Shown here: positions 7,455-15,188 of the stretch, piece by piece
Layout of the letters: the number at the start of each line of letters is the position of its first letter
How positions within the stretch are numbered: the first letter of the stretch is position 1
Source: an uncultured Eubacteriales bacterium
GTDB lineage: Bacteria; Bacillota; Clostridia; Oscillospirales; Acutalibacteraceae
Assembly: GCA_964515215.1 (NCBI GenBank)
Contig: CAZESL010000054.1
Location: 1-15,547 of the forward strand
DNA length: 15,547 nucleotides
Reading direction: 5' to 3'
Program-made: the position numbers and the translations under genes
The notes under the pieces: generated by a model
What the model was told of the DNA's origin: nothing
What the model saw: the letters and a program-made list of their open reading frames with translations, nothing else
The model's database searches: none

Positions 7455-8083
7455 ACCGCATCACCCACCCTTTCGTGAGCGGCCGCATTCCGTCCCGCAA
7501 TTTTGCGTTTGGAGATTTTGGACCGCACCACGGCACTGACCTGTTGGTCGGCCATATAGATGGAGATCTTTTTGATGTTTTCTTCGGTTTCGGGGATCTT
7601 CACCTTTTCGAACAGATTGACGCGTTGCGAAGTGGAAAGAAGTTCCGCTTCGAGCAGGCGCACCTGTTCGTCCAACACCTCGGCCATCAAATCCAGCGAC
7701 ATCGCCTTTTCCATGTGATCGGCGGCGATATCCACCCACAGGGGCGTTTCGTACAAGTCGTAATCCCCCCGTGAAAAATCCGCGCCCTCAAACGTGGGGA
7801 TATCCACACCCGCGATGTTGCCCGTTCCTTTACGCACGTTGCGGACGGACACCGCGTTTTCGGGGAACGCCGCCGTCTCGCCGAAAACGGCGATCCAGTC
7901 GCGAAACCCGTGTTCGAGTTGTTCCCGCTCGGTGCGTACGGCATTCGCCTGCGCTTCAATGGTGCGGATCTCGGCTTGCAGTTGTTGTTTTTTCAGTGTC
8001 AGAGTCGGCAAATATCTCCGGTACATCTTCAGTGCATCTTTTTGTACCTTTAACTCATTTTTCGTTAATTTGATTTTTGCCAA
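7451..8083 (-). CDS. atpD: V-type ATPase subunit D (central stalk)
   Basis: The 275-aa frame was trimmed to a TTG start at 8083, with a GGAGG RBS 9 nt upstream, immediately after the atpB stop. Translation: MAKIKLTKNELKVQKDALKMYRRYLPTLTLKKQQLQ..., about 210 aa and coiled-coil rich. The exact start (TTG versus the nearby ATT) is uncertain. Confidence 0.75.
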   Translation of the reverse strand: MAKIKLTKNELKVQKDALKMYRRYLPTLTLKKQQLQAEIRTIEAQANAVRTEREQLEHGFRDWIAVFGETAAFPENAVSVRNVRKGTGNIAGVDIPTFEGADFSRGDYDLYETPLWVDIAADHMEKAMSLDLMAEVLDEQVRLLEAELLSTSQRVNLFEKVKIPETEENIKKISIYMADQQVSAVVRSKISKRKIAGRNAAAHERVGDAV

Positions 8084-8097
8084 AATTACCGTCCTCC

Positions 8098-9399
8098 TTA
8101 CTTCACGGGCCAGAACTCGTCCGTAAGGTCGGACTTGATGCCGGTCTCTTCCTTCTGGAAACAGTCGGCAAGGATCTCCCAACCGAGATCCAACGCTTCT
8201 TCCAACGAAAGTTTCACCGACAGATCCATCAGTTTCCGTTCGAACAGATCGCCGTATTTGAGCAGCTTTTCGTCCCAACGGTTCATGGAGAAGCCCATAT
8301 TCTTTTTCTCAAGCGTTTCTTTGTAGGAGGAGTACATGCGGATCATCGCATCCATCAGTGCGCGGTGATCTTTGCGCGTTTTGTTGTTGACGTTTTGCTT
8401 CAAACGCGAAAGTGAACCGAACGGTTCAATGCGGCCGCCTTTCAGATAGTACTGTCCTTCGGTGATGTATCCCGTATTATCGGGCACGGGATGCGTCACG
8501 TCGTCACCGGGCATGGTGGTCACCGCCAATACCGTGACCGAACCCGAATCCGCAAAGTCCACCGCCTTTTCGTAACGGGCGGCAAGCTGAGAATACAAGT
8601 CACCGGGATACCCGCGGTTGGAAGGCACCTGTTCTTGCGTGATGGCGATCTCTTTCATGGCGTCGGCAAAGTTGGTCATATCGGTGAGCAACACCAACAC
8701 GTCTTTGTCTTGCAGGGCAAACTGTTCCGCCACTGCCAGCGCCATGTCGGGGATCATCATGCATTCCACCGTCGGGTCGGAAGCGGTATGCACGAACATG
8801 ACGGTTTTACTGAGTGCGCCGCCTTTGGACAATTCCTCCTTAAAGAAGAGGAAGTCGTCGTATTTAAGACCCATACCGCCGAGTACGATCACGTCCGCTT
8901 CGGCTTGCAGGGCGATACGCGCGAGCAACTGGTTGTACGGCTCACCCGAAATGGAGAAGATGGGCAGTTTTTGCGACACGACCAGCGTGTTGAACATATC
9001 GATCATCGGGATGTTCGTACGCAACATGCGGTTGGCAAGAATACGTTTGGTCGGGTTGACCGAAGGGCCGCCGATCGGCGTCATATTTTCGGTGAGAGCG
9101 GGGCCGTTGTCCCGCGGTTCACCCGAACCGTTGAAGATGCGCCCGAGCAGATCTTCGCTGAACGATACCCGCATCTCGTGCCCCAGAAAACGTACTTCGT
9201 CACCCGTGGAAACGCCCTGACCGCCCGCAAATACCTGCAACGATACGATGTCGCCTTCGATCTTGTTGACCTCGGCAAGCGACTTGCCGAAACGGGTCGT
9301 AATTTCCGCCAATTCGTTATACCGAATGCCATTTGCCCGCACGGTGATCACGTTACCGTTGATGGATTCAATGCGATTGTAGACCTTGCTCATGCTCAC
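8098..9399 (-). CDS. atpB: V-type ATPase subunit B (regulatory)
   Basis: 433 aa, with the characteristic A/B-family fold motifs. Its ATGA start overlaps atpA. Confidence 0.93.
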
Positions 9400-11165
9400 T
9401 CACCACCCTTCAGCAACTGTGCGGCTTCACTGCCGAGTTTGCCCGATGCGCTGTCGTACAACGCATCGATCTCCCGTTCCGCCGCGCGGAACGCGTCGCT
9501 TTCAAATTCCGTGTAGTTCCAGTCGATGAACTTCTGACGTAAACGGTTGAAGAACCCGCGTGCTTCATCCTTGCTGGCGATCGCATACTCACTGCCGAGT
9601 ACGTAGATCAGTTTATCGGTCACATAGCGTTGACGGGCGGTGGTGCAGTTGGCCTCGATCGGGTCGAAGGAGTTTTGCTGCAGATACACCGCATCCAGCA
9701 TTTCCTCTTTCAGGAAGGTCATGTGGTCGGACAGGCTGATGCCGTCCTCGCCGATGACCTTCATCATGGATTCGATCTCGTCGCCGCGTTGCAGGATCTC
9801 TTTGCAAAAACGGGATTTTTCGGGATCGATGACGGTACGGTATTTCGACCACGAGATGAGCGGGTCGATCGCGGGGTATTTACGTGCATCCGACCGTTCA
9901 CGCGAAAGACCGTGGAACGCACCGACCACCTTCAACGTGGCTTGCGTCACCGGTTCTTCAAAGTTACCGCCCGCAGGGGATACGGTGCCGCCGATGGTGA
10001 CCGAACCGATCGAGCCGTCCGCCAATCGCACGCGACCCGCACGCTCGTAAAATGCGGCGATATACGACTCCAGATACGCGGGGAACGCTTCTTCGCCCGG
10101 TATCTCTTCCAAACGCCCCGACATTTCACGCAGCGCCTGCGCCCAGCGGGAGGTGGAGTCGGCCAGCAGCAGGACGTTCAAGCCCATTTGACGGTAATAT
10201 TCCGCCAGCGTCACCGAGGTGTACACCGAGGCTTCGCGCGCCGCCACCGGCATGGAGGAGGTGTTACAGATGATGATGGTGCGCTCCATCAAGGAGCGGC
10301 CGGTGCGCGGATCCACCAATTCGGGGAATTCGGTGATGGTCTCCACCACTTCACCCGCACGCTCACCGCAGGCGGCAATGATCACGATATCCACGTCGGC
10401 GTATTTCGACGTGGTGTGCTGCAACACCGTCTTGCCCGCACCGAACGGGCCGGGAGTGCAGTAGGTACCGCCCTTGGCAACGGGGAAGAAGGAGTCCATC
10501 AAGCGCACCTTAGTCTCCATCGTCTCCATCGGTGCCAACCGTTCAGCATAGCATTTGATGGCACGCTTAACAGGCCATTTGAAGGACATGGAAACCGAGA
10601 TCTCCCGTCCGCGTTCGTCCGCAATGACGGCTACGGGTTCTTCCACCGTGTACCGGCCTTTTTCGACAACGGACTTTAAGGTGTAGTTCCCGAGCAGATA
10701 GAACGGCACGAAGATCTTATGGGTAAACGCCCCTTCGGGAACGGTGCCGATCGTATCACCCGCACGCAGGGTGTCGCCTGCTTGTGCGGTCGGTGTGAAC
10801 TCCCATTTCTTTTCACGGTCCAGACCGTCGGCATAGATGCCGCGCTCCAAGAACCAGCCTGCTTGCTCCGCCAATATCGGCAACGGATTTTGTAAGCCGT
10901 CATAGATCTGACCGAGCAGACCGGGCCCCAAAGTGGCGGACAGCATATCGCCCGTGAACTCCACTTCGTCGCCGCATTGAATGCCGCCCGTCATTTCATA
11001 AACCTGGATCTGCGCCACGTTGCCGCGGATACGGATGACTTCGCTTTTCAGTCGGGTACCGTCCACGTGAACGAAGCAGATCTCGTTCATGGAAACGGTG
11101 CCGTGGAATTCAACCGACACCAAGTTGCCGTTGACGCTGACGACCTTTCCTTTATTTTCGGTCAT
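9396..11165 (-). CDS. atpA: V-type ATPase subunit A (catalytic)
   Basis: 589 aa. Walker A 'GPFGAGKTV' lies in the '[40 protein letters not shown]' context. Confidence 0.95.
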
Positions 11166-11719
11166 TTCACAACCTCCAACCGATCTCCACGCATAATGGA
11201 GTCGTAAATATTTTTGTATGCGGTCACACCGCGATCGGTATCAAACTGACGCATACGTAAAAGCAATTTCAATTTCAAAAGATAATAGAACACGAAGTCT
11301 TCCGCAAACGTGTCCATCGGCCGCAGACTTTCCAAAAACGCCAACCGATAACGGAACAGATGCCGCTCCGCCTCTAAGGGGTTTTCCGTATCCACTGCCG
11401 TGCGTACGGCCTGCAACAGCGCAGGCGGCACCGAGGGGAGATCTTCCTCAAAGGGCTTTTGCATCTTTTCTGCCCGTGTTTTGGCCAACGCGAGCCGCAA
11501 CAGCCGTTCTCCCTCGTTCCACACGGACACCAACGCCGAGGAGGACTTTTGGTTTTCTTTTGAAGGGAGCAGCGTCACACGGCGCAACTCATTTTGCACC
11601 TTCTTACCCAAAAACCGATCGCACAGTTCCAAAAACCGTTCTTCGGTAATGGGAAGCGGCGTGCTCTCCGAAACGCTGTCGAGCGACGGCAGTTGGGATA
11701 TCAAATAGTATTCGGCCAT
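11162..11719 (-). CDS. V-ATPase operon-associated protein (DUF2764-like; subunit C analogue)
   Basis: 185-aa ORF wedged between E and A with 4-nt and 3-nt junctions. Its position matches the uncharacterised gene in Bacteroidetes/Treponema-type V-ATPase operons. The DUF2764 call rests on recalled synteny. Confidence 0.55.
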   Translation of the reverse strand: MAEYYLISQLPSLDSVSESTPLPITEERFLELCDRFLGKKVQNELRRVTLLPSKENQKSSSALVSVWNEGERLLRLALAKTRAEKMQKPFEEDLPSVPPALLQAVRTAVDTENPLEAERHLFRYRLAFLESLRPMDTFAEDFVFYYLLKLKLLLRMRQFDTDRGVTAYKNIYDSIMRGDRLEVVK

Positions 11720-11722
11720 AGT

Positions 11723-12331
11723 TTATTCCGCCTCTTTCAGAAGTGCCGTGACTCTGGGGGAGAGGTAGTTCGCAAGCATGTCACAGACCGCATCCGCCGA
11801 GTAATCGTAATAGGCACCGCCGTCTTTGGCGGCAATACGGAACCCGCCGTCAAAATTGTTGTTGGCCTTCAGCGTAACACCGCTCAGCGCTTTGGCTTTA
11901 AACTGTGCCAGCAGGGTCTCCTCCAACGCTTTCCGATCGGCTTCGTTCAGGATCACTTCCACCTCGTCGGCATCGGGTCGGCTCACCCAAGTTTCCACCG
12001 CCGTCACGATGATCTTGGCAAAGGCGTCCGATGAATACACCGCCGCCACCTGTTCGCCCACGATCGCGCGCAACTCGCGCGTGACGCTTTCGCGGAACGA
12101 GATGAGCAGGTTGCGCCCCGCCTGACGGATCGCCTCCTCCGAAGAGGTCACCATACGCTCGTTTTCACGCTTGGCGCCAAGCAGCAGTTTGTCGGCTTCC
12201 GCCCGAGCGGCGGCAACGATCTCCGCCGCTTCCGCTTTCGCGGCGTTCCGTATCGCTTCGGCTTCGGCTTCGGCCGCTTCGACCCCTTCCCGTTTGATCT
12301 GTTCGATCAATTCTTGCAGTTGTATTTCCAT
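11723..12331 (-). CDS. atpE: V-type ATPase subunit E (peripheral stalk)
   Basis: The start was set at the internal ATG (MEIQLQELIEQIKREGVEAAEAEAEAIRNAAKAEAAEIV...) because it has an AAGGAGAG RBS 7 nt upstream. The ORF's first ATG, at 12361, has no RBS. Confidence 0.85.
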   Translation of the reverse strand: MEIQLQELIEQIKREGVEAAEAEAEAIRNAAKAEAAEIVAAARAEADKLLLGAKRENERMVTSSEEAIRQAGRNLLISFRESVTRELRAIVGEQVAAVYSSDAFAKIIVTAVETWVSRPDADEVEVILNEADRKALEETLLAQFKAKALSGVTLKANNNFDGGFRIAAKDGGAYYDYSADAVCDMLANYLSPRVTALLKEAE

Positions 12332-12363
12332 AAGGCACTCTCCTTTTGAAATAATACGCACGT

Positions 12364-12378
12364 TTAGGTTAAACCTAA
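12364..12378. repeat. Inverted repeat TTAGGTT-a-AACCTAA in the atpE 5'UTR, adjacent to the RBS
   Basis: Perfect 7-bp arms with a 1-nt spacer. It could form a hairpin in the mRNA or serve as an operator. Confidence 0.3.
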
Positions 12379-12391
12379 CCCATTAAATTCC

Positions 12392-12420
12392 ATTATACAC
12401 ATTTTTTTCGCCGTATTCAA
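12392..12420 (-). promoter_or_regulatory. Putative sigma70 promoter of the V-ATPase operon (TTGAAT - 17 nt - TATAAT on the minus strand)
   Basis: The reverse complement of 12415-12420 is TTGAAT, and of 12392-12397 is TATAAT. The predicted TSS is ~12385, giving a ~54-nt 5'UTR. Confidence 0.4.
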
Positions 12421-12466
12421 TAGTTTTGCAGTGAAATTTTTGAAAATTCACAATTACAAAGGTTAC

Positions 12467-12480
12467 AACGTTGCAACGTT
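12467..12480. promoter_or_regulatory. Perfect 14-bp palindrome AACGTTGCAACGTT between the divergent promoters; candidate regulator binding site
   Basis: Exact dyad symmetry. It lies ~40 bp upstream of the T-box promoter -35 and ~50 bp upstream of the atp promoter -35. The neighbouring GTGAA-N11-TTCAC inverted repeat (12431-12451) is a second candidate site. Confidence 0.4.
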
Positions 12481-12490
12481 ACGCACAATC

Positions 12491-12539
12491 GAAAAAATTT
12501 GAAAAAAGTGTTGACAAGCGCAAAAAGGCGTGCTATAAT
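12491..12539 (+). promoter_or_regulatory. Near-consensus sigma70 promoter with an UP-like A-tract (TTGACA - 17 nt - TGcTATAAT)
   Basis: A-rich 12491-12510 (GAAAAAATTTGAAAAAAG). -35 TTGACA (12511-12516), 17-nt spacer, TG extended -10, TATAAT (12534-12539). Confidence 0.75.
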
Positions 12540-12545
12540 GCGTCA

Positions 12546-12816
12546 CATATTGAAAAAGCTGTGACGAAGACGGCAGAAACAGGATGTTTTCAGAGAGTCG
12601 GCGGGTGGTGCGAGCCGACAGCGGAGCGTTTCAATGCCCATCCCTTCCGAGCTGATCGTCCCGAAATCGTTTCGTGAGTAGGGCGTTCCGTGTATGCTAC
12701 GTTAGTGCAAAGGGCTTGTTGGAGCCTTAAAAGCGGTGTCGAAAGACGCAATTTGAGTGGTACCGCGGGTGAAGGAATTTACTCGTCTCAAAGGAAACTT
12801 TGAGACGGGTTTTTTT
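12546..12816 (+). promoter_or_regulatory. T-box riboswitch leader (tRNA-sensing transcription attenuator)
   Basis: Stem I distal elements: AG bay AGAGA (12592-12596), then distal helix GTCGGC/GCCGAC with loop GGGTGGTGCGA (the GGUGNRA motif). F-box-like GCTACGTTAGTGC (12696-12708). T-box sequence AATTTGAGTGGTACCGCGGG (12750-12769), matching 17/19 of the consensus AAUUAGGGUGGNACCGCGG. The antiterminator is TTTGAG[TGGTACC]GCGGGT...ACTCGTCTCAAA; its 3' strand is the 5' strand of the terminator. The UGGU bulge implies a tRNA with discriminator A. Confidence 0.8.
12784..12816 (+). terminator. T-box intrinsic terminator (attenuator)
   Basis: CGTCTCAAAG-gaaa-CTTTGAGACG perfect 10-bp stem, then GG and 7 T residues. 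It sits ~30 nt upstream of the GGAAGGAG RBS/ATG at 12849. Confidence 0.8.
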
Positions 12817-12848
12817 ATTTGTAATCAACTTGGAAGGAGAAAACGACA

Positions 12849-15152
12849 ATGGATTACAGTTTGAAAGAAGTGGCAGGGAGAATCAAAGATCTGCGCGAAG
12901 CCAAGGGATACACGCAGGAGGAACTGGCAAGGCTCACGGGCGTGTCGATCGAAGATTACAAGATTTTGGAGAACGGCGAGACCGACTTCAGTTTCACTTT
13001 CATTTACAAATGCGCGAAGGCGTGTGACGTGGAAGTTGTGGACCTGCTTGAAGGAACCAGCACGACCCTTTCTTCGTTTGCGATCACGAGAAAGGGAGAA
13101 GGCCTGAAGATCTTGAAGCAGCACGGGGTGGAGTACAATAACTTAGCTCCGAAATTCAAAGACAAACTGGCCGAGCCGTTCTTGGTGAAATTCCCCTTTA
13201 TTCCCGAGGAACAGAACGCACCCATGAAACTCAATTCCCACAACGGTCAGGAATTTGACGTGGTGGTAAAGGGTTCTCTGAAAGTGCAGGTCGGCAGTCA
13301 CGTGGACGTTCTTCACGAGGGCGACTCGATCTTCTATAACAGTTTGATCCCGCACGGGATGATCGCGGTCAGCGAAGGCGGATGTGAGTTCCACGCTGTG
13401 GTGCTGAATCCGCAAAACGGTCTGGTGAGCGAGGAGTACCCGGAAGTGCCGTATACCGCTCCCAAAGCAGTGGAAAACGAAGAAAAACCCGTCGGTGTGG
13501 CAGATAACTTCGTGGAATCCTTCTACGATGAAAACGGCGTCTTCAACGGCATCAAGTTCAAAAATGAAGACTCCTTCAACTTTGCGTTTGACTGTGTGGA
13601 CGCCATTGCGCAAAAGACGCCCGACAAACTGGCGATGCTGTGGGTGGCGAACGACAAGACCGACCGCCGTTTCACCTTCAGCGATATGAAGAAATATTCG
13701 GCGAAGACCGCGAACTATTTCGAATCGCTCGGTATCAAGAAGGGCGACACCGTGATGTTGGTGCTCAAACGCCACTACCAGTTCTGGTTCTGTATGTTGG
13801 CGCTTCACAAGATCGGTGCGATCGCCATCCCCGCGACCAACCAGTTGGTGGAGCACGATTTCACCTACCGCTACAAAGCGGCAAAAGTAAAGGCGATCGT
13901 CTGCACGGCGGACGGCGACGTGTCGGGTGAGGCGGAAAAAGCCGCTGCCGAATTCCCCGATATGCTGAAAGTTCTGGTCGGCGGCAAGAAGGACGGTTGG
14001 AACGATTTCGACGTGGAGATGGAGCGTTTCAGCACCCATTACTTCCGCACCGAGCAGACCCCCTGCGGCAACGATCCGATGCTGATGCTCTTCACCTCAG
14101 GTACGACGGGCTATCCCCGTATCGCGACCCACTCGTACAAGTACGCGCTCGGCCATTATCCCACCGCGCGGCATTGGCATAACGTCAATCCCGACGGCTT
14201 GCACTTTACCATCTCGGATACGGGTTGGGGCAAGGCGCTGTGGGGCAAACTCTACGGTCAGTGGCTGTGCGAAGCGGGTGTGTTCACCTACGATTTCGAT
14301 CGCTTCCATTCGGAAGACATCCTGCCGATGTTCGCGAAATATCACATCACCACCTTCTGTGCACCGCCGACAATGTACCGCTTCTTCATCAAAGAGGATC
14401 TGTCGAAGTACGATCTGTCTTCCATTGAATACGCCACCACCGCGGGCGAGGCACTGAACCCCGAAGTGTTTAATCAGTTTAAGAAGGCCACGGGGCTTAC
14501 TATTATGGAAGGCTTCGGTCAGACCGAAACCACCTTGTCTATCGCCAACTTCGTGGGGTCCACTCCGCGCATCGGTTCGATGGGTAAGGCCAGTCCGCTG
14601 TACGACGTGGTGGTGCTGGATCCCGACGGGAACGAGTGCAAGACGGGCGATACGGGCGAGATCTGTATCCGCGTGAAAGACGGGGAAGCCCCCTGCGGCC
14701 TCTTCATCGGGTACTATTTGAACGAAGACAAGACGAACGAGGTCTGGCACGACGGCTTCTATCACACCGGTGACCAGGCGACCATGGACGAAGACGGCTA
14801 TCTCTGGTACGTCGGCCGTATCGACGACGTGATCAAGTCGTCGGGTTACCGCATCGGGCCGTTCGAGATCGAAAGCGTCATCATGGAACTGCCGTACGTG
14901 CTGGAATGTGCCATCACGCCCGTGCCCGACGAGGTGCGCGGTCAGATCGTAAAAGCCACCATCGTGCTGGTGAAAGGAACCGAGGGCAGTGACGCTCTGA
15001 AAAAAGAGATCCAGGAATACGTGAAGACCCACACCGCTCCTTACAAATATCCCCGTATCGTGGAGTTCGTGAGCGAGTTGCCGAAGACCATCAGCGGCAA
15101 AGTGCGCCGTGTGGAGATCCGCAAAAACGACATGGAAAAGATGAACAAGTAA
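12849..15152 (+). CDS. Fusion protein: N-terminal HTH (XRE family) plus cupin domain, then a full-length AMP-forming acyl-CoA synthetase/adenylating enzyme
   Basis: 767-aa ORF with a GGAAGGAG RBS. XRE HTH: 'GYTQEELARLTGVSIEDYKILENGE'. Cupin: 'VVVKGSLKVQVGSHVDVLHEGDSIFYNSLIPHGM'. AMP-binding core motifs: 'FTSGTTGYPR' (A3), 'GFGQTETT' (A5), 'YHTGDQA' (A7), 'GRIDDVIKSSGYRIGPFEIE' (A8), 'PKTISGKVRR' (A10). The 'ISDTGWGKALWG' motif resembles the medium-chain acyl-CoA synthetase subfamily. Confidence 0.85.
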   Translation: MDYSLKEVAGRIKDLREAKGYTQEELARLTGVSIEDYKILENGETDFSFTFIYKCAKACDVEVVDLLEGTSTTLSSFAITRKGEGLKILKQHGVEYNNLAPKFKDKLAEPFLVKFPFIPEEQNAPMKLNSHNGQEFDVVVKGSLKVQVGSHVDVLHEGDSIFYNSLIPHGMIAVSEGGCEFHAVVLNPQNGLVSEEYPEVPYTAPKAVENEEKPVGVADNFVESFYDENGVFNGIKFKNEDSFNFAFDCVDAIAQKTPDKLAMLWVANDKTDRRFTFSDMKKYSAKTANYFESLGIKKGDTVMLVLKRHYQFWFCMLALHKIGAIAIPATNQLVEHDFTYRYKAAKVKAIVCTADGDVSGEAEKAAAEFPDMLKVLVGGKKDGWNDFDVEMERFSTHYFRTEQTPCGNDPMLMLFTSGTTGYPRIATHSYKYALGHYPTARHWHNVNPDGLHFTISDTGWGKALWGKLYGQWLCEAGVFTYDFDRFHSEDILPMFAKYHITTFCAPPTMYRFFIKEDLSKYDLSSIEYATTAGEALNPEVFNQFKKATGLTIMEGFGQTETTLSIANFVGSTPRIGSMGKASPLYDVVVLDPDGNECKTGDTGEICIRVKDGEAPCGLFIGYYLNEDKTNEVWHDGFYHTGDQATMDEDGYLWYVGRIDDVIKSSGYRIGPFEIESVIMELPYVLECAITPVPDEVRGQIVKATIVLVKGTEGSDALKKEIQEYVKTHTAPYKYPRIVEFVSELPKTISGKVRRVEIRKNDMEKMNK

Positions 15153-15161
15153 ACGAAAAGC

Positions 15162-15188
15162 GCGACGGAAATCTCCGTCGCGTTTTTA
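15162..15188 (+). terminator. Rho-independent terminator after the fusion gene
   Basis: CGCGACGGA-aatc-TCCGTCGCG 9-bp stem followed by TTTTT. Confidence 0.75.

Follow-up and report, generated by a model that had tools for sequence, protein, structure and literature searches.

In a 15,547-nucleotide stretch of DNA from an uncultured Eubacteriales bacterium (assembly GCA_964515215.1, contig CAZESL010000054.1; hereafter the window), a T-box riboswitch carrying an isoleucine specifier codon precedes the gene for an AMP-forming acyl-coenzyme A (CoA) synthetase. The T-box leader RNA occupies 12552–12817 of the plus strand, and the gene behind it (12849–15152) encodes a 767-residue protein in which a helix-turn-helix (HTH) domain and a cupin domain are joined to a ligase of the type of MacsMa, the medium-chain acyl-CoA synthetase of Methanosarcina acetivorans, and MbcS, the methylbutyryl-CoA synthetase of Staphylococcus aureus. 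The comparative evidence favours, with reasonable though far from complete confidence, a reading in which the tRNA-Ile T-box induces this fused ligase and the ligase activates 2-methylbutyrate for isoleucine synthesis.

Architecture of the T-box leader

In an Rfam scan by E-value, the T-box model RF00230 matched 12552–12793 of the plus strand over its full length (model positions 1–219 of 219), with a score of 87.0 bits and an E-value of 1.4e-19. Extended through the terminator and its U-run, the leader measures approximately 270 nt and is followed by a ribosome-binding site, GGAAGGAG (12832–12839), read from the sequence 9 nt before the ATG of the 767-codon open reading frame (ORF). The leader is preceded by a sigma-70-type promoter (12511–12539) that matches the consensus at 12 of 12 positions, with TTGACA at 12511–12516, TATAAT at 12534–12539 and a 17-nt spacer containing a TG upstream of the −10 box. 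This −35/−10 layout, together with an A/T-rich stretch upstream of it, is kept in approximately 60 related loci.

Stem I (12558–12652) had to be defined by comparative analysis, because the minimum-free-energy fold of Stem I alone was wrong and insignificant (z = +0.63). It is made up of a base helix (12558–12559/12651–12652), the K-turn strands (12560–12565 and 12648–12650, placed by both the RF00230 alignment and the comparative structure), helix H1 (GAAG 12566–12569 with CUUC 12644–12647), an extra helix H2 (GGCA 12572–12575 with UGCC 12635–12638), helix H3 (GAAAC 12576–12580 with GUUUC 12628–12632) and a distal helix (12598–12602/12614–12618). The AG bay, AGAGAG at 12592–12597 in the RF00230 alignment, lies beneath the distal helix, which is closed by the distal loop GGGUGGUGCGA (12603–12613) containing the GGUGNRA motif as GGUGCGA. 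Across 67 distinct leaders this structure is 93.5% paired, versus 26–46% when the 3′ partners are slid; both sides change in 15 of its 25 pairs, and none of 500 shuffles reached the observed values.

The remaining elements up to the antiterminator were placed by alignment to the RF00230 consensus structure. Stem II (12655–12661 with 12681–12687) contains AGUA at 12677–12680, the Stem IIA/B and F-box region extends over 12689–12704 with the F-box CGUUA at 12700–12704, and Stem III is a hairpin with a GAAA loop (12736–12749, −6.6 kcal/mol). The T-box sequence, TTGAGTGGTACCGCG, is present in 72 of 73 orthologous leaders. The antiterminator (12752–12791, −13.1 kcal/mol) competes with an intrinsic terminator (12781–12817; −20.2 kcal/mol, z = −7.5) composed of a 13-bp stem (12781–12810) and a U-run. 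The 5′ arm of the terminator is the 3′ strand of the antiterminator, residues 12781–12791 being common to both, and termination is therefore the default state. The AG bay, GGUGNRA loop, F-box, T-box sequence and antiterminator/terminator overlap, from which the first-pass annotation of this DNA had called a T-box, are all in place, as is the UGGU bulge from which it had read discriminator A: in the bulge UGGUACC (12757–12763), UGGU is predicted to pair with the tRNA 3′ end ACCA, which implies this discriminator. Discriminator A fits tRNA-Ile, as judged by bacterial tRNA identity; no tRNA-Ile gene was present in the window or in the 12 loci scanned.

Relatives of the encoded protein were collected in a scan of one genome per species, which gave 576 relatives, and the best 80 of these (88–95% identity) were used as the close set. 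All 80 come from uncultured Clostridia genomes (metagenome-assembled genomes) labelled Oscillospiraceae, Acutalibacteraceae, Eubacteriales and similar; isolate names that state a source point to the hindgut, rumen or faeces of cattle, goat, sheep, yak, deer and buffalo. In essentially all loci whose upstream sequence is long enough, a T-box core is found approximately 110 nt ahead of the gene. Orthologous leaders ahead of the same gene score 95–102 bits with RF00230, and 8 of 10 loci scanned with Rfam pass the curated gathering cut-off of 93 bits, which is an annotation threshold rather than a structural feature. Further related leaders reach 94.9–100.6 bits and those of more distant relatives 98.6 and 100.3 bits. 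Leaders of this subfamily fall between 85 and 102 bits, compared with 119–139 bits for Leu T-boxes of the same genomes, and the non-canonical specifier region that they have in common probably accounts for the low scores.

The first-pass annotation had named an Rfam score below threshold as grounds for discarding the T-box. Taken to the letter, 87 against 93 bits is such a score, yet it does not refute the element: the match runs end to end, orthologous leaders score above the cut-off, Stem I covaries and the non-canonical specifier region belongs to the whole subfamily. The T-box leader is real. A decayed or chance T-box-like sequence without regulatory function could explain the sub-threshold score and the unusual specifier loop, but it is exceedingly improbable and is already contradicted by the comparative data. 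Against it stand the E-value of 1.4e-19 over the full model, the more than 100 loci, many above the cut-off, in which a T-box is conserved ahead of this gene, the Stem I covariation, an invariant codon between variable flanks, a perfect promoter and a strong terminator. The second-ranking Rfam family, RAGATH-7, at 12416–12566 (25 bits, cut-off 111.8), and other weak Rfam matches were set aside as chance.

A further conserved element was seen at the predicted transcript start of approximately 66 related loci (for example, L056 at approximately 5660–5675). This near-invariant sequence, AAAUUUGAAUAUCAC, is complementary to AUUCRRAUUU just 3′ of the terminator U-run; a 7-bp core pairs in 62 of 66 loci, the only changes being A/G opposite U. 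All 74 occurrences of the motif in the loci lie ahead of the T-box of the ligase gene, and it is absent from the window, L001 and L066. The pairing could reflect a long-range RNA helix or an operator.

A compact specifier loop with an invariant AUC codon

The specifier codon is AUC (Ile) at 12640–12642. It sits on the 3′ side of the Stem I internal loop, one base 5′ of the lower-helix strand CUUC (12644–12647); the loop consists of AC (12570–12571) on the 5′ side and C-AUC-C (12639–12643) on the 3′ side. AUC is invariant in all 73 orthologous leaders. It is preceded by either C or U in related leaders and followed, in the 71 leaders for which automatic parsing succeeded, by A in 61, C in 7 (among them the window) and G in 3, so the other frames around AUC (CAU/UAU and UCA/UCC) were dropped. 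The register was calibrated on other T-boxes of the same genomes, in which the leader of a LeuA-like gene reads GAA-CUC-A and leaders of PaaK-like ligase genes read GAA-UUC-C/A. A UUC (Phe) specifier, offered in the first-pass annotation as one reading of the candidate stretch 12620–12640, has to be given up: UUC at 12630–12632 is inside helix H3 (GUUUC/GAAAC), and the invariant triplet is instead AUC, at the 3′ edge of that stretch.

Helix H2 takes the place of the S-turn of other T-boxes. Its four base pairs are 97.8% paired, with double changes in three of the four: the window has GGCA/UGCC, most relatives have GGUC/GACC, and GGUC/GACU, GGUU/AACC, AGCU/AGCU and GAUC/GAUC also occur among relatives. 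What is left is a compact internal loop, 5′ AC and 3′ N-AUC-N, in which only N-codon-N is unpaired on the 3′ side. The valine-type leaders of the family, described below, have the same compact layout without an S-turn as the isoleucine-type leaders (window 12570–12575 and 12635–12643; alignment columns 13–18 and 84–92). A T-box subfamily with such a specifier loop forms a natural set of use to structural work.

Isoleucine and valine specifiers among relatives

The wider family was surveyed through the genomic contexts of proteins that match the N-terminal region (see below) and through a more diverged set of 80 loci at 44–70% identity from a metagenome scan. Among relatives with a T-box, automatic parsing gave the specifier AUC in 18 and GUA in 6. 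Reading by eye assigned Ile to L098, L101a, L116a, L121, L150 and L152, and Val to L101b, L116b, L094 and L090b, with a probable GUG in L120; L081 has AUC and GUC on two tandem paralogues. Such tandem Ile/Val paralogues recur (L081, L090, L101 and L116). No Leu specifier was found among those leaders of this ligase family that could be parsed.

The T-box is associated with the enzyme rather than with its N-terminal module, since the stand-alone ligase of L150, which has no HTH–cupin part, is also located behind an Ile T-box (94.9 bits). T-box cores were not found in relatives at 44–49% identity with enough upstream sequence, nor in seven fusions at 57–66% identity (L087, L088, L089, L091, L114, L115 and L117).

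The ligase and its predicted substrate

Four Pfam domains, each above its cut-off, make up the protein, with HTH_3 before Cupin_2 and the two ligase domains. The XRE-type HTH_3 domain comprises residues 12–65 (12882–13043; E = 3.5e-10, 40.2 bits, cut-off 23) and Cupin_2 residues 128–184 (13230–13400; E = 4.9e-9, 36.2 bits, cut-off 27.2). The AMP-forming acyl-CoA synthetase (13602–15101) is composed of AMP-binding (residues 252–610, 191.5 bits) and AMP-binding_C (residues 673–751, 76.3 bits) and contains the core motifs FTSGTTGYPR (415–424), YHTGD (638–642), GRIDD (656–660) and PKTISGK with K751. An intrinsic terminator directly 3′ of the stop codon (15156–15188; −22.2 kcal/mol, z = −6.4) makes the gene monocistronic in the window. 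The first-pass description of a single downstream gene, fused from an HTH, a cupin and an adenylating enzyme, is thereby borne out.

The closest solved relative of the catalytic part is MacsMa (3ETC), which aligns over residues 234–762 with an E-value of 2.2e-198. In this alignment G557 and W465 occupy the positions of the MacsMa gatekeeper Gly and Trp259. W443, W460, K462 and C504 are what we take, from Meng et al. 2010, to be the remaining acyl-pocket positions. All six predicted pocket residues are unchanged in the 29 relatives whose T-box was parsed as Ile or Val; the sole exception seen is the downstream paralogue of L085, which has Thr in place of C504. In MacsMa, a Gly replaces the Trp by which Acs is confined to acetate, and Trp259 takes over its position; MacsMa prefers 2-methylbutyrate and completes both half-reactions with 2-methylbutyrate only (PMC10455477). 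The top NCBIfam model for the window protein is MbcS (NF047394), at 443.4 bits. MbcS activates 2-methylbutyrate and isobutyrate, uses isovalerate and butyrate poorly and has no detected activity with acetate (PMC10026030). The restriction of the family's T-boxes to Ile and Val matches this selectivity of MbcS and MacsMa for alpha-branched acids.

Taken together, the homology and the specifier make 2-methylbutyrate the most likely substrate of the ligase. The proposal in the first-pass annotation that the enzyme acts on an amino-acid-derived acid, not an ordinary fatty acid, fits this evidence, whereas its suggestion that an amino acid might be adenylated directly is unlikely, the catalytic part being a CoA ligase of the MacsMa/MbcS type. 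One position may distinguish the two branches of the family. All 22 Ile-type proteins have Gly at residue 461 (14229–14231 in the window), which lies between W460 and K462; 6 of the 7 Val-type proteins have Ala there, and one of the six with Ala461, that of L119, lies outside the Val clade. Residue 461 is a candidate specificity switch: isobutyrate, being smaller, would be better accommodated with a bulkier side chain next to the pocket.

The gut is rich in propionate, and a route from propionate to isoleucine is known in some anaerobes. The ligase might accordingly activate propionate, the resulting propionyl-CoA being reductively carboxylated to 2-oxobutyrate, from which isoleucine would be made through the ordinary ilv pathway; the protein also matches, though more weakly, CoA-ligase models for acetate and propionate. 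This is a very unlikely assignment. MacsMa, whose pocket residues are conserved here, forms propionyl-AMP without completing the CoA-ester (PMC10455477). The Val-specific paralogue would have no counterpart in a propionate scheme, whereas conversion of isobutyrate to Val parallels that of 2-methylbutyrate to Ile, and the oxidoreductase neighbouring the ligase in relatives is annotated as the branched-chain VorB type.

Genes linked to the ligase in relatives

Synteny around the 80 close relatives is weak. In the diverged set, the ligase has as neighbours the alpha subunit of a 2-oxoacid:ferredoxin oxidoreductase (OFOR; POR_N and PFOR_II domains) in 13 of 85 loci, the OFOR beta subunit (TPP_enzyme_C) in 9, a P-loop CbiA/ParA-like protein in 9 and a class IV aminotransferase in 5. 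Linkage to a branched-chain OFOR or branched-chain aminotransferase was observed in the relatives L107, L094, L123, L116, L090, L101 and L100, not in the window. L107 presents the most complete row: an Ile T-box (98.6 bits), the ligase, the P-loop protein, OFOR alpha, beta and gamma and a class IV aminotransferase, the alpha subunit being identified as NCBIfam VorB with 545 bits (cut-off 399). L094 has a Val T-box, the ligase, OFOR alpha, beta and gamma and then a branched-chain aminotransferase, and L123 has the ligase, a branched-chain aminotransferase, the P-loop protein and OFOR alpha and beta. In L116 an Ile ligase and a Val ligase are followed by IlvE (478 bits, cut-off 307), and in L085 an Ile T-box and a 400-nt spacer precede two ligase paralogues and a class I/II aminotransferase.

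The linked genes of these relatives would encode the three steps that lead from an acid through the acyl-CoA and the 2-oxoacid to an amino acid. The acids that serve as precursors in the rumen are 2-methylbutyrate for Ile, isobutyrate for Val, isovalerate for Leu and phenylacetate for Phe (PMC7356843; PMC2812497), and the three-step gene set matches the physiology described in these two papers.

The same T-box and substrate would also suit a lipid role, in which 2-methylbutyryl-CoA serves as a primer for anteiso branched-chain fatty acids when isoleucine is short, as with MbcS of S. aureus. MbcS is the top NCBIfam model and that role has been demonstrated for it (PMC10026030; PMC11167679), and neither the window nor any of the 80 closest relatives has an oxidoreductase beside the gene. 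The rows of distant relatives, however, combine the ligase with a VorB-type OFOR and IlvE, which are amino-acid rather than lipid-primer genes; separate Ile and Val paralogues each have the matching specifier; and a Phe T-box of the same genomes drives a PaaK-like ligase, phenylacetyl-CoA being no ordinary fatty-acid primer. As the main function, primer supply is unlikely, although the primer and isoleucine roles do not exclude each other.

Some other proteins recur near the ligase. The P-loop protein (approximately 220 residues, with weak CbiA/ParA similarity and without an NCBIfam match) is found in nine loci, at 6267–6938 in L107 and also in L090, L099, L101, L108, L113, L123, L138 and L163, mostly beside the ligase, OFOR or IlvE; it may be an Fe–S or maturation factor. 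A protein of approximately 480 residues with ACT and metallo-beta-lactamase folds adjoins the ligase gene in 14 close relatives (4019–5593 in L025), mostly downstream, and is absent from the window. A LysR-type regulator (10 loci) and a sodium:solute symporter, SSF (11 loci), occur near the ligase in some close relatives; in L062 the two genes are divergent neighbours, at 8364–9305 and 9306–10922. The symporter could be an acid uptake system.

The HTH–cupin module

Residues 6–188 align to the HTH–cupin regulator 1Y9Q across both domains. Searched with the first 250 residues, a set of 1.84 billion representative proteins yielded 2951 matches, which include full-length fusions (80%, 43% and 35% identity) as well as many stand-alone HTH–cupin proteins of approximately 185 residues. 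In six T-box-less relatives (L128, L131, L139, L158, L163 and L165), a separate gene for an HTH–cupin protein of 184–204 residues lies directly upstream of that for a ligase of 547–559 residues (3995–4555 and 4565–6241 in L128). An OFOR alpha gene and a fused beta–gamma gene (approximately 480 residues) follow the ligase in five of the six, all but L163, which has a partial OFOR alpha gene upstream on the opposite strand. Because the module is a separate gene upstream of the ligase in these relatives, it looks like what was once the local regulator of a ligase–OFOR operon and was joined to the enzyme within the Clostridia lineage.

Ile-type and Val-type proteins are best told apart by 15 alignment columns, 13 of which fall in residues 40–232. 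This is suggestive of a role for the N-terminus, to be read with the fact that the Val-types form mostly one clade and that the N-terminus is more variable. An operator search yielded no convincing operator; a conserved ATTTGAATATCAC at the predicted transcript start was present in relatives only, not in the window.

The protein might be mainly a transcription factor, the ligase domain serving as a BirA-like sensor, such that isoleucine starvation yields a regulator that switches on unlinked genes only in the presence of 2-methylbutyrate. Intact HTH_3 and Cupin_2 domains, the homologous HTH–cupin genes adjoining ligase–OFOR operons in T-box-less relatives and the many Ile/Val-differing positions in the N-terminal module speak for such a function. 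The conservation of all catalytic motifs and pocket residues of the ligase, the stand-alone L150 ligase behind an Ile T-box and the failure of the search to identify an operator argue in the other direction, and a primarily regulatory protein appears quite improbable.

Proposed mechanism

In the favoured reading, a tRNA-Ile T-box controlling a 2-methylbutyrate ligase for isoleucine supply, the leader would terminate by default at 12781–12817. When tRNA-Ile is poorly charged, uncharged tRNA would pair at two places, the AUC of Stem I and the UGGU of the bulge, stabilizing the antiterminator and allowing the ligase gene to be transcribed. The ligase would convert 2-methylbutyrate to 2-methylbutyryl-CoA, from which a branched-chain 2-oxoacid:ferredoxin oxidoreductase of the VOR type would form 2-oxo-3-methylvalerate by reductive carboxylation, to be transaminated to isoleucine by IlvE. 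The HTH–cupin module is probably a ligand-sensing regulator, and may exert feedback on the enzyme or DNA, or both. We infer which substrate the enzyme uses, what part the pathway plays in this organism and whatever activity the HTH–cupin module has. Induction by uncharged tRNA would make sense only for a supply route, not for breakdown, and AMP-forming ligases run towards the CoA-ester.

Several observations weigh against this reading. A default Rfam scan of the window at the gathering threshold reports no match, the leader scoring 6 bits under the cut-off. The specifier loop lacks the AGUA/GAA S-turn, and the base after the codon in the window is C, not a purine. No oxidoreductase or aminotransferase gene is present in the 15.5-kb window or in the 80 closest loci. 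The MbcS equivalog cut-off (850 bits) is not reached, which makes the protein a relative of MbcS and not an equivalog. Finally, the six predicted pocket residues are identical in Ile-type and Val-type enzymes, so that discrimination between substrates would rest on the one nearby position and on the T-box.

Other T-box-controlled ligases of the same genomes

In relatives of the window genome, Leu T-boxes (119–139 bits, GAA-CUC-A) drive a LeuA-like gene followed by a gene for an 826-residue fusion in which a xylose-isomerase-like TIM barrel (AP_endonuc_2) is joined to a different acyl-CoA ligase (PRK12583 type, 675 bits). In L056 the T-box is at 1430–1673 and the genes are at 1736–3142 and 3123–5603; the arrangement also occurs in L030, L050, L051, L052, L058, L062, L067 and L078, and in divergent orientation in L081–L084. 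This fusion may be the leucine/isovalerate counterpart of the Ile/Val ligases.

A Phe T-box (GAA-UUC-C/A, approximately 102 bits) drives a PaaK-like phenylacetate-CoA ligase, which scores 526 bits against the PaaK cut-off of 646. The L062 locus comprises 11572–11823, 11899–13227 and 13238–13675; T-box and ligase are also found in L008, L067 and L079, while in L049 the ligase is cut at the contig end and L045 has the T-box only. An ACT-domain protein follows the PaaK-like ligase in L008, L062 and L067. Phenylalanine synthesis from phenylacetate would fit this arrangement.

These loci allow a wider and distinctly tentative proposal: a regulon of T-box-controlled acyl-CoA ligases in gut Clostridia that salvages fermentation acids to amino acids, with the HTH–cupin–MacsMa-type enzymes serving Ile and Val, the TIM-barrel–ligase fusion Leu, and the PaaK-like ligase with its ACT protein Phe. 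In each case the specifier would label the substrate, and the HTH–cupin ligases would act as trigger enzymes over unlinked oxidoreductase and aminotransferase genes, sensing either the end product or the precursor. The Ile/Val route would then be subject to two tiers of control, tRNA charging and precursor availability.

Surrounding genes of the window

The T-box/ligase transcription unit (12491–15152) adjoins a V-type ATPase operon on the opposite, minus strand (5514–12361), which encodes subunits I, D, B and A, a DUF2764 protein and subunit E. The longest ORFs for subunits D (7451–8278) and B (8098–9399) overlap by approximately 180 nt; the true start of subunit D is probably further downstream, because its Pfam match begins at residue 75. 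Further upstream, the plus strand encodes a DUF2828/DUF7788 protein (264–1889), an SPFH/Band 7 protein (2392–3507) and an RtcB RNA ligase (3494–4696). This cluster (264–4696) looks like an RNA-repair-type set unrelated to the T-box and ligase.

The V-ATPase and T-box promoters are divergent, and the interval between them contains a perfect 14-nt palindrome, AACGTTGCAACGTT, at 12467–12480, 31 nt upstream of the −35 box. It was rejected as an operator, as approximately one such palindrome per window is expected by chance and the closest relative, L001, lacks it. The A/T-rich stretch upstream of the −35 box was likewise considered and rejected as a CodY box: it also stands ahead of the promoters of the Leu and Phe T-boxes in these genomes, and so looks like a general promoter feature.

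Comparison with known systems

It has long been known that anaerobes of the rumen and hindgut require or use phenylacetate and branched-chain volatile fatty acids to make Ile, Val, Leu and Phe. In the literature searched, no gene was found assigned to the activation step of this route. The placing of Ile, Val, Leu and Phe T-boxes ahead of distinct ligases therefore gives specific, testable gene assignments, since a T-box names the amino acid that it serves; for Ile and Val, the VorB-type oxidoreductase and IlvE genes beside the ligases of relatives cover the whole route from acid to amino acid. The system would tie tRNA charging to an old but genetically undefined route of gut anaerobes from volatile fatty acids to branched-chain amino acids, in organisms that are abundant in livestock guts, where branched-chain acids matter for feeding. 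It would also extend the range of T-box outputs to precursor-salvage enzymes. The first-pass annotation had judged the target unusual, and this enzyme class has not been reported under T-box control in the literature searched: the full-text searches and the T-box surveys consulted linked no T-box with an acyl-CoA ligase or OFOR.

The leader resembles canonical T-boxes (RF00230; the ileS and ilv–leu leaders of Firmicutes) in its K-turn, the AG bay and distal loop of Stem I, Stem II and IIA/B, Stem III and an antiterminator that bears the UGGN bulge and is in competition with a terminator, and its AUC specifier follows their preference for C in the third position. It differs from them in its output, an acyl-CoA ligase rather than a tRNA synthetase, a classical biosynthetic enzyme or a transporter, and in its compact specifier loop, where a covarying 4-bp helix stands instead of the AGUA/GAA S-turn.

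The whole catalytic part of the protein aligns with MacsMa, and the gatekeeper Gly and Trp259 are conserved; MacsMa, however, is archaeal, has neither an N-terminal HTH–cupin module nor a T-box, and was not tied in its physiological role to isoleucine supply. The alpha-branched selectivity of MbcS mirrors the Ile and Val T-boxes of the ligase family, whereas MbcS feeds fatty-acid synthesis and lacks the HTH–cupin module, and T-box control is not mentioned in PMC11167679 or PMC10026030. The N-terminal module has the order of the XRE–HTH–cupin regulators (1Y9Q; PuuR-type), HTH_3 and then Cupin_2, and stand-alone homologues of approximately 185 residues are common; unlike these, it is fused to the enzyme that it probably once regulated. 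In joining DNA-binding and catalytic domains the protein recalls the trigger enzymes BirA, PutA and NadR, of which BirA is also adenylate-forming, the likeness being one of resemblance only.

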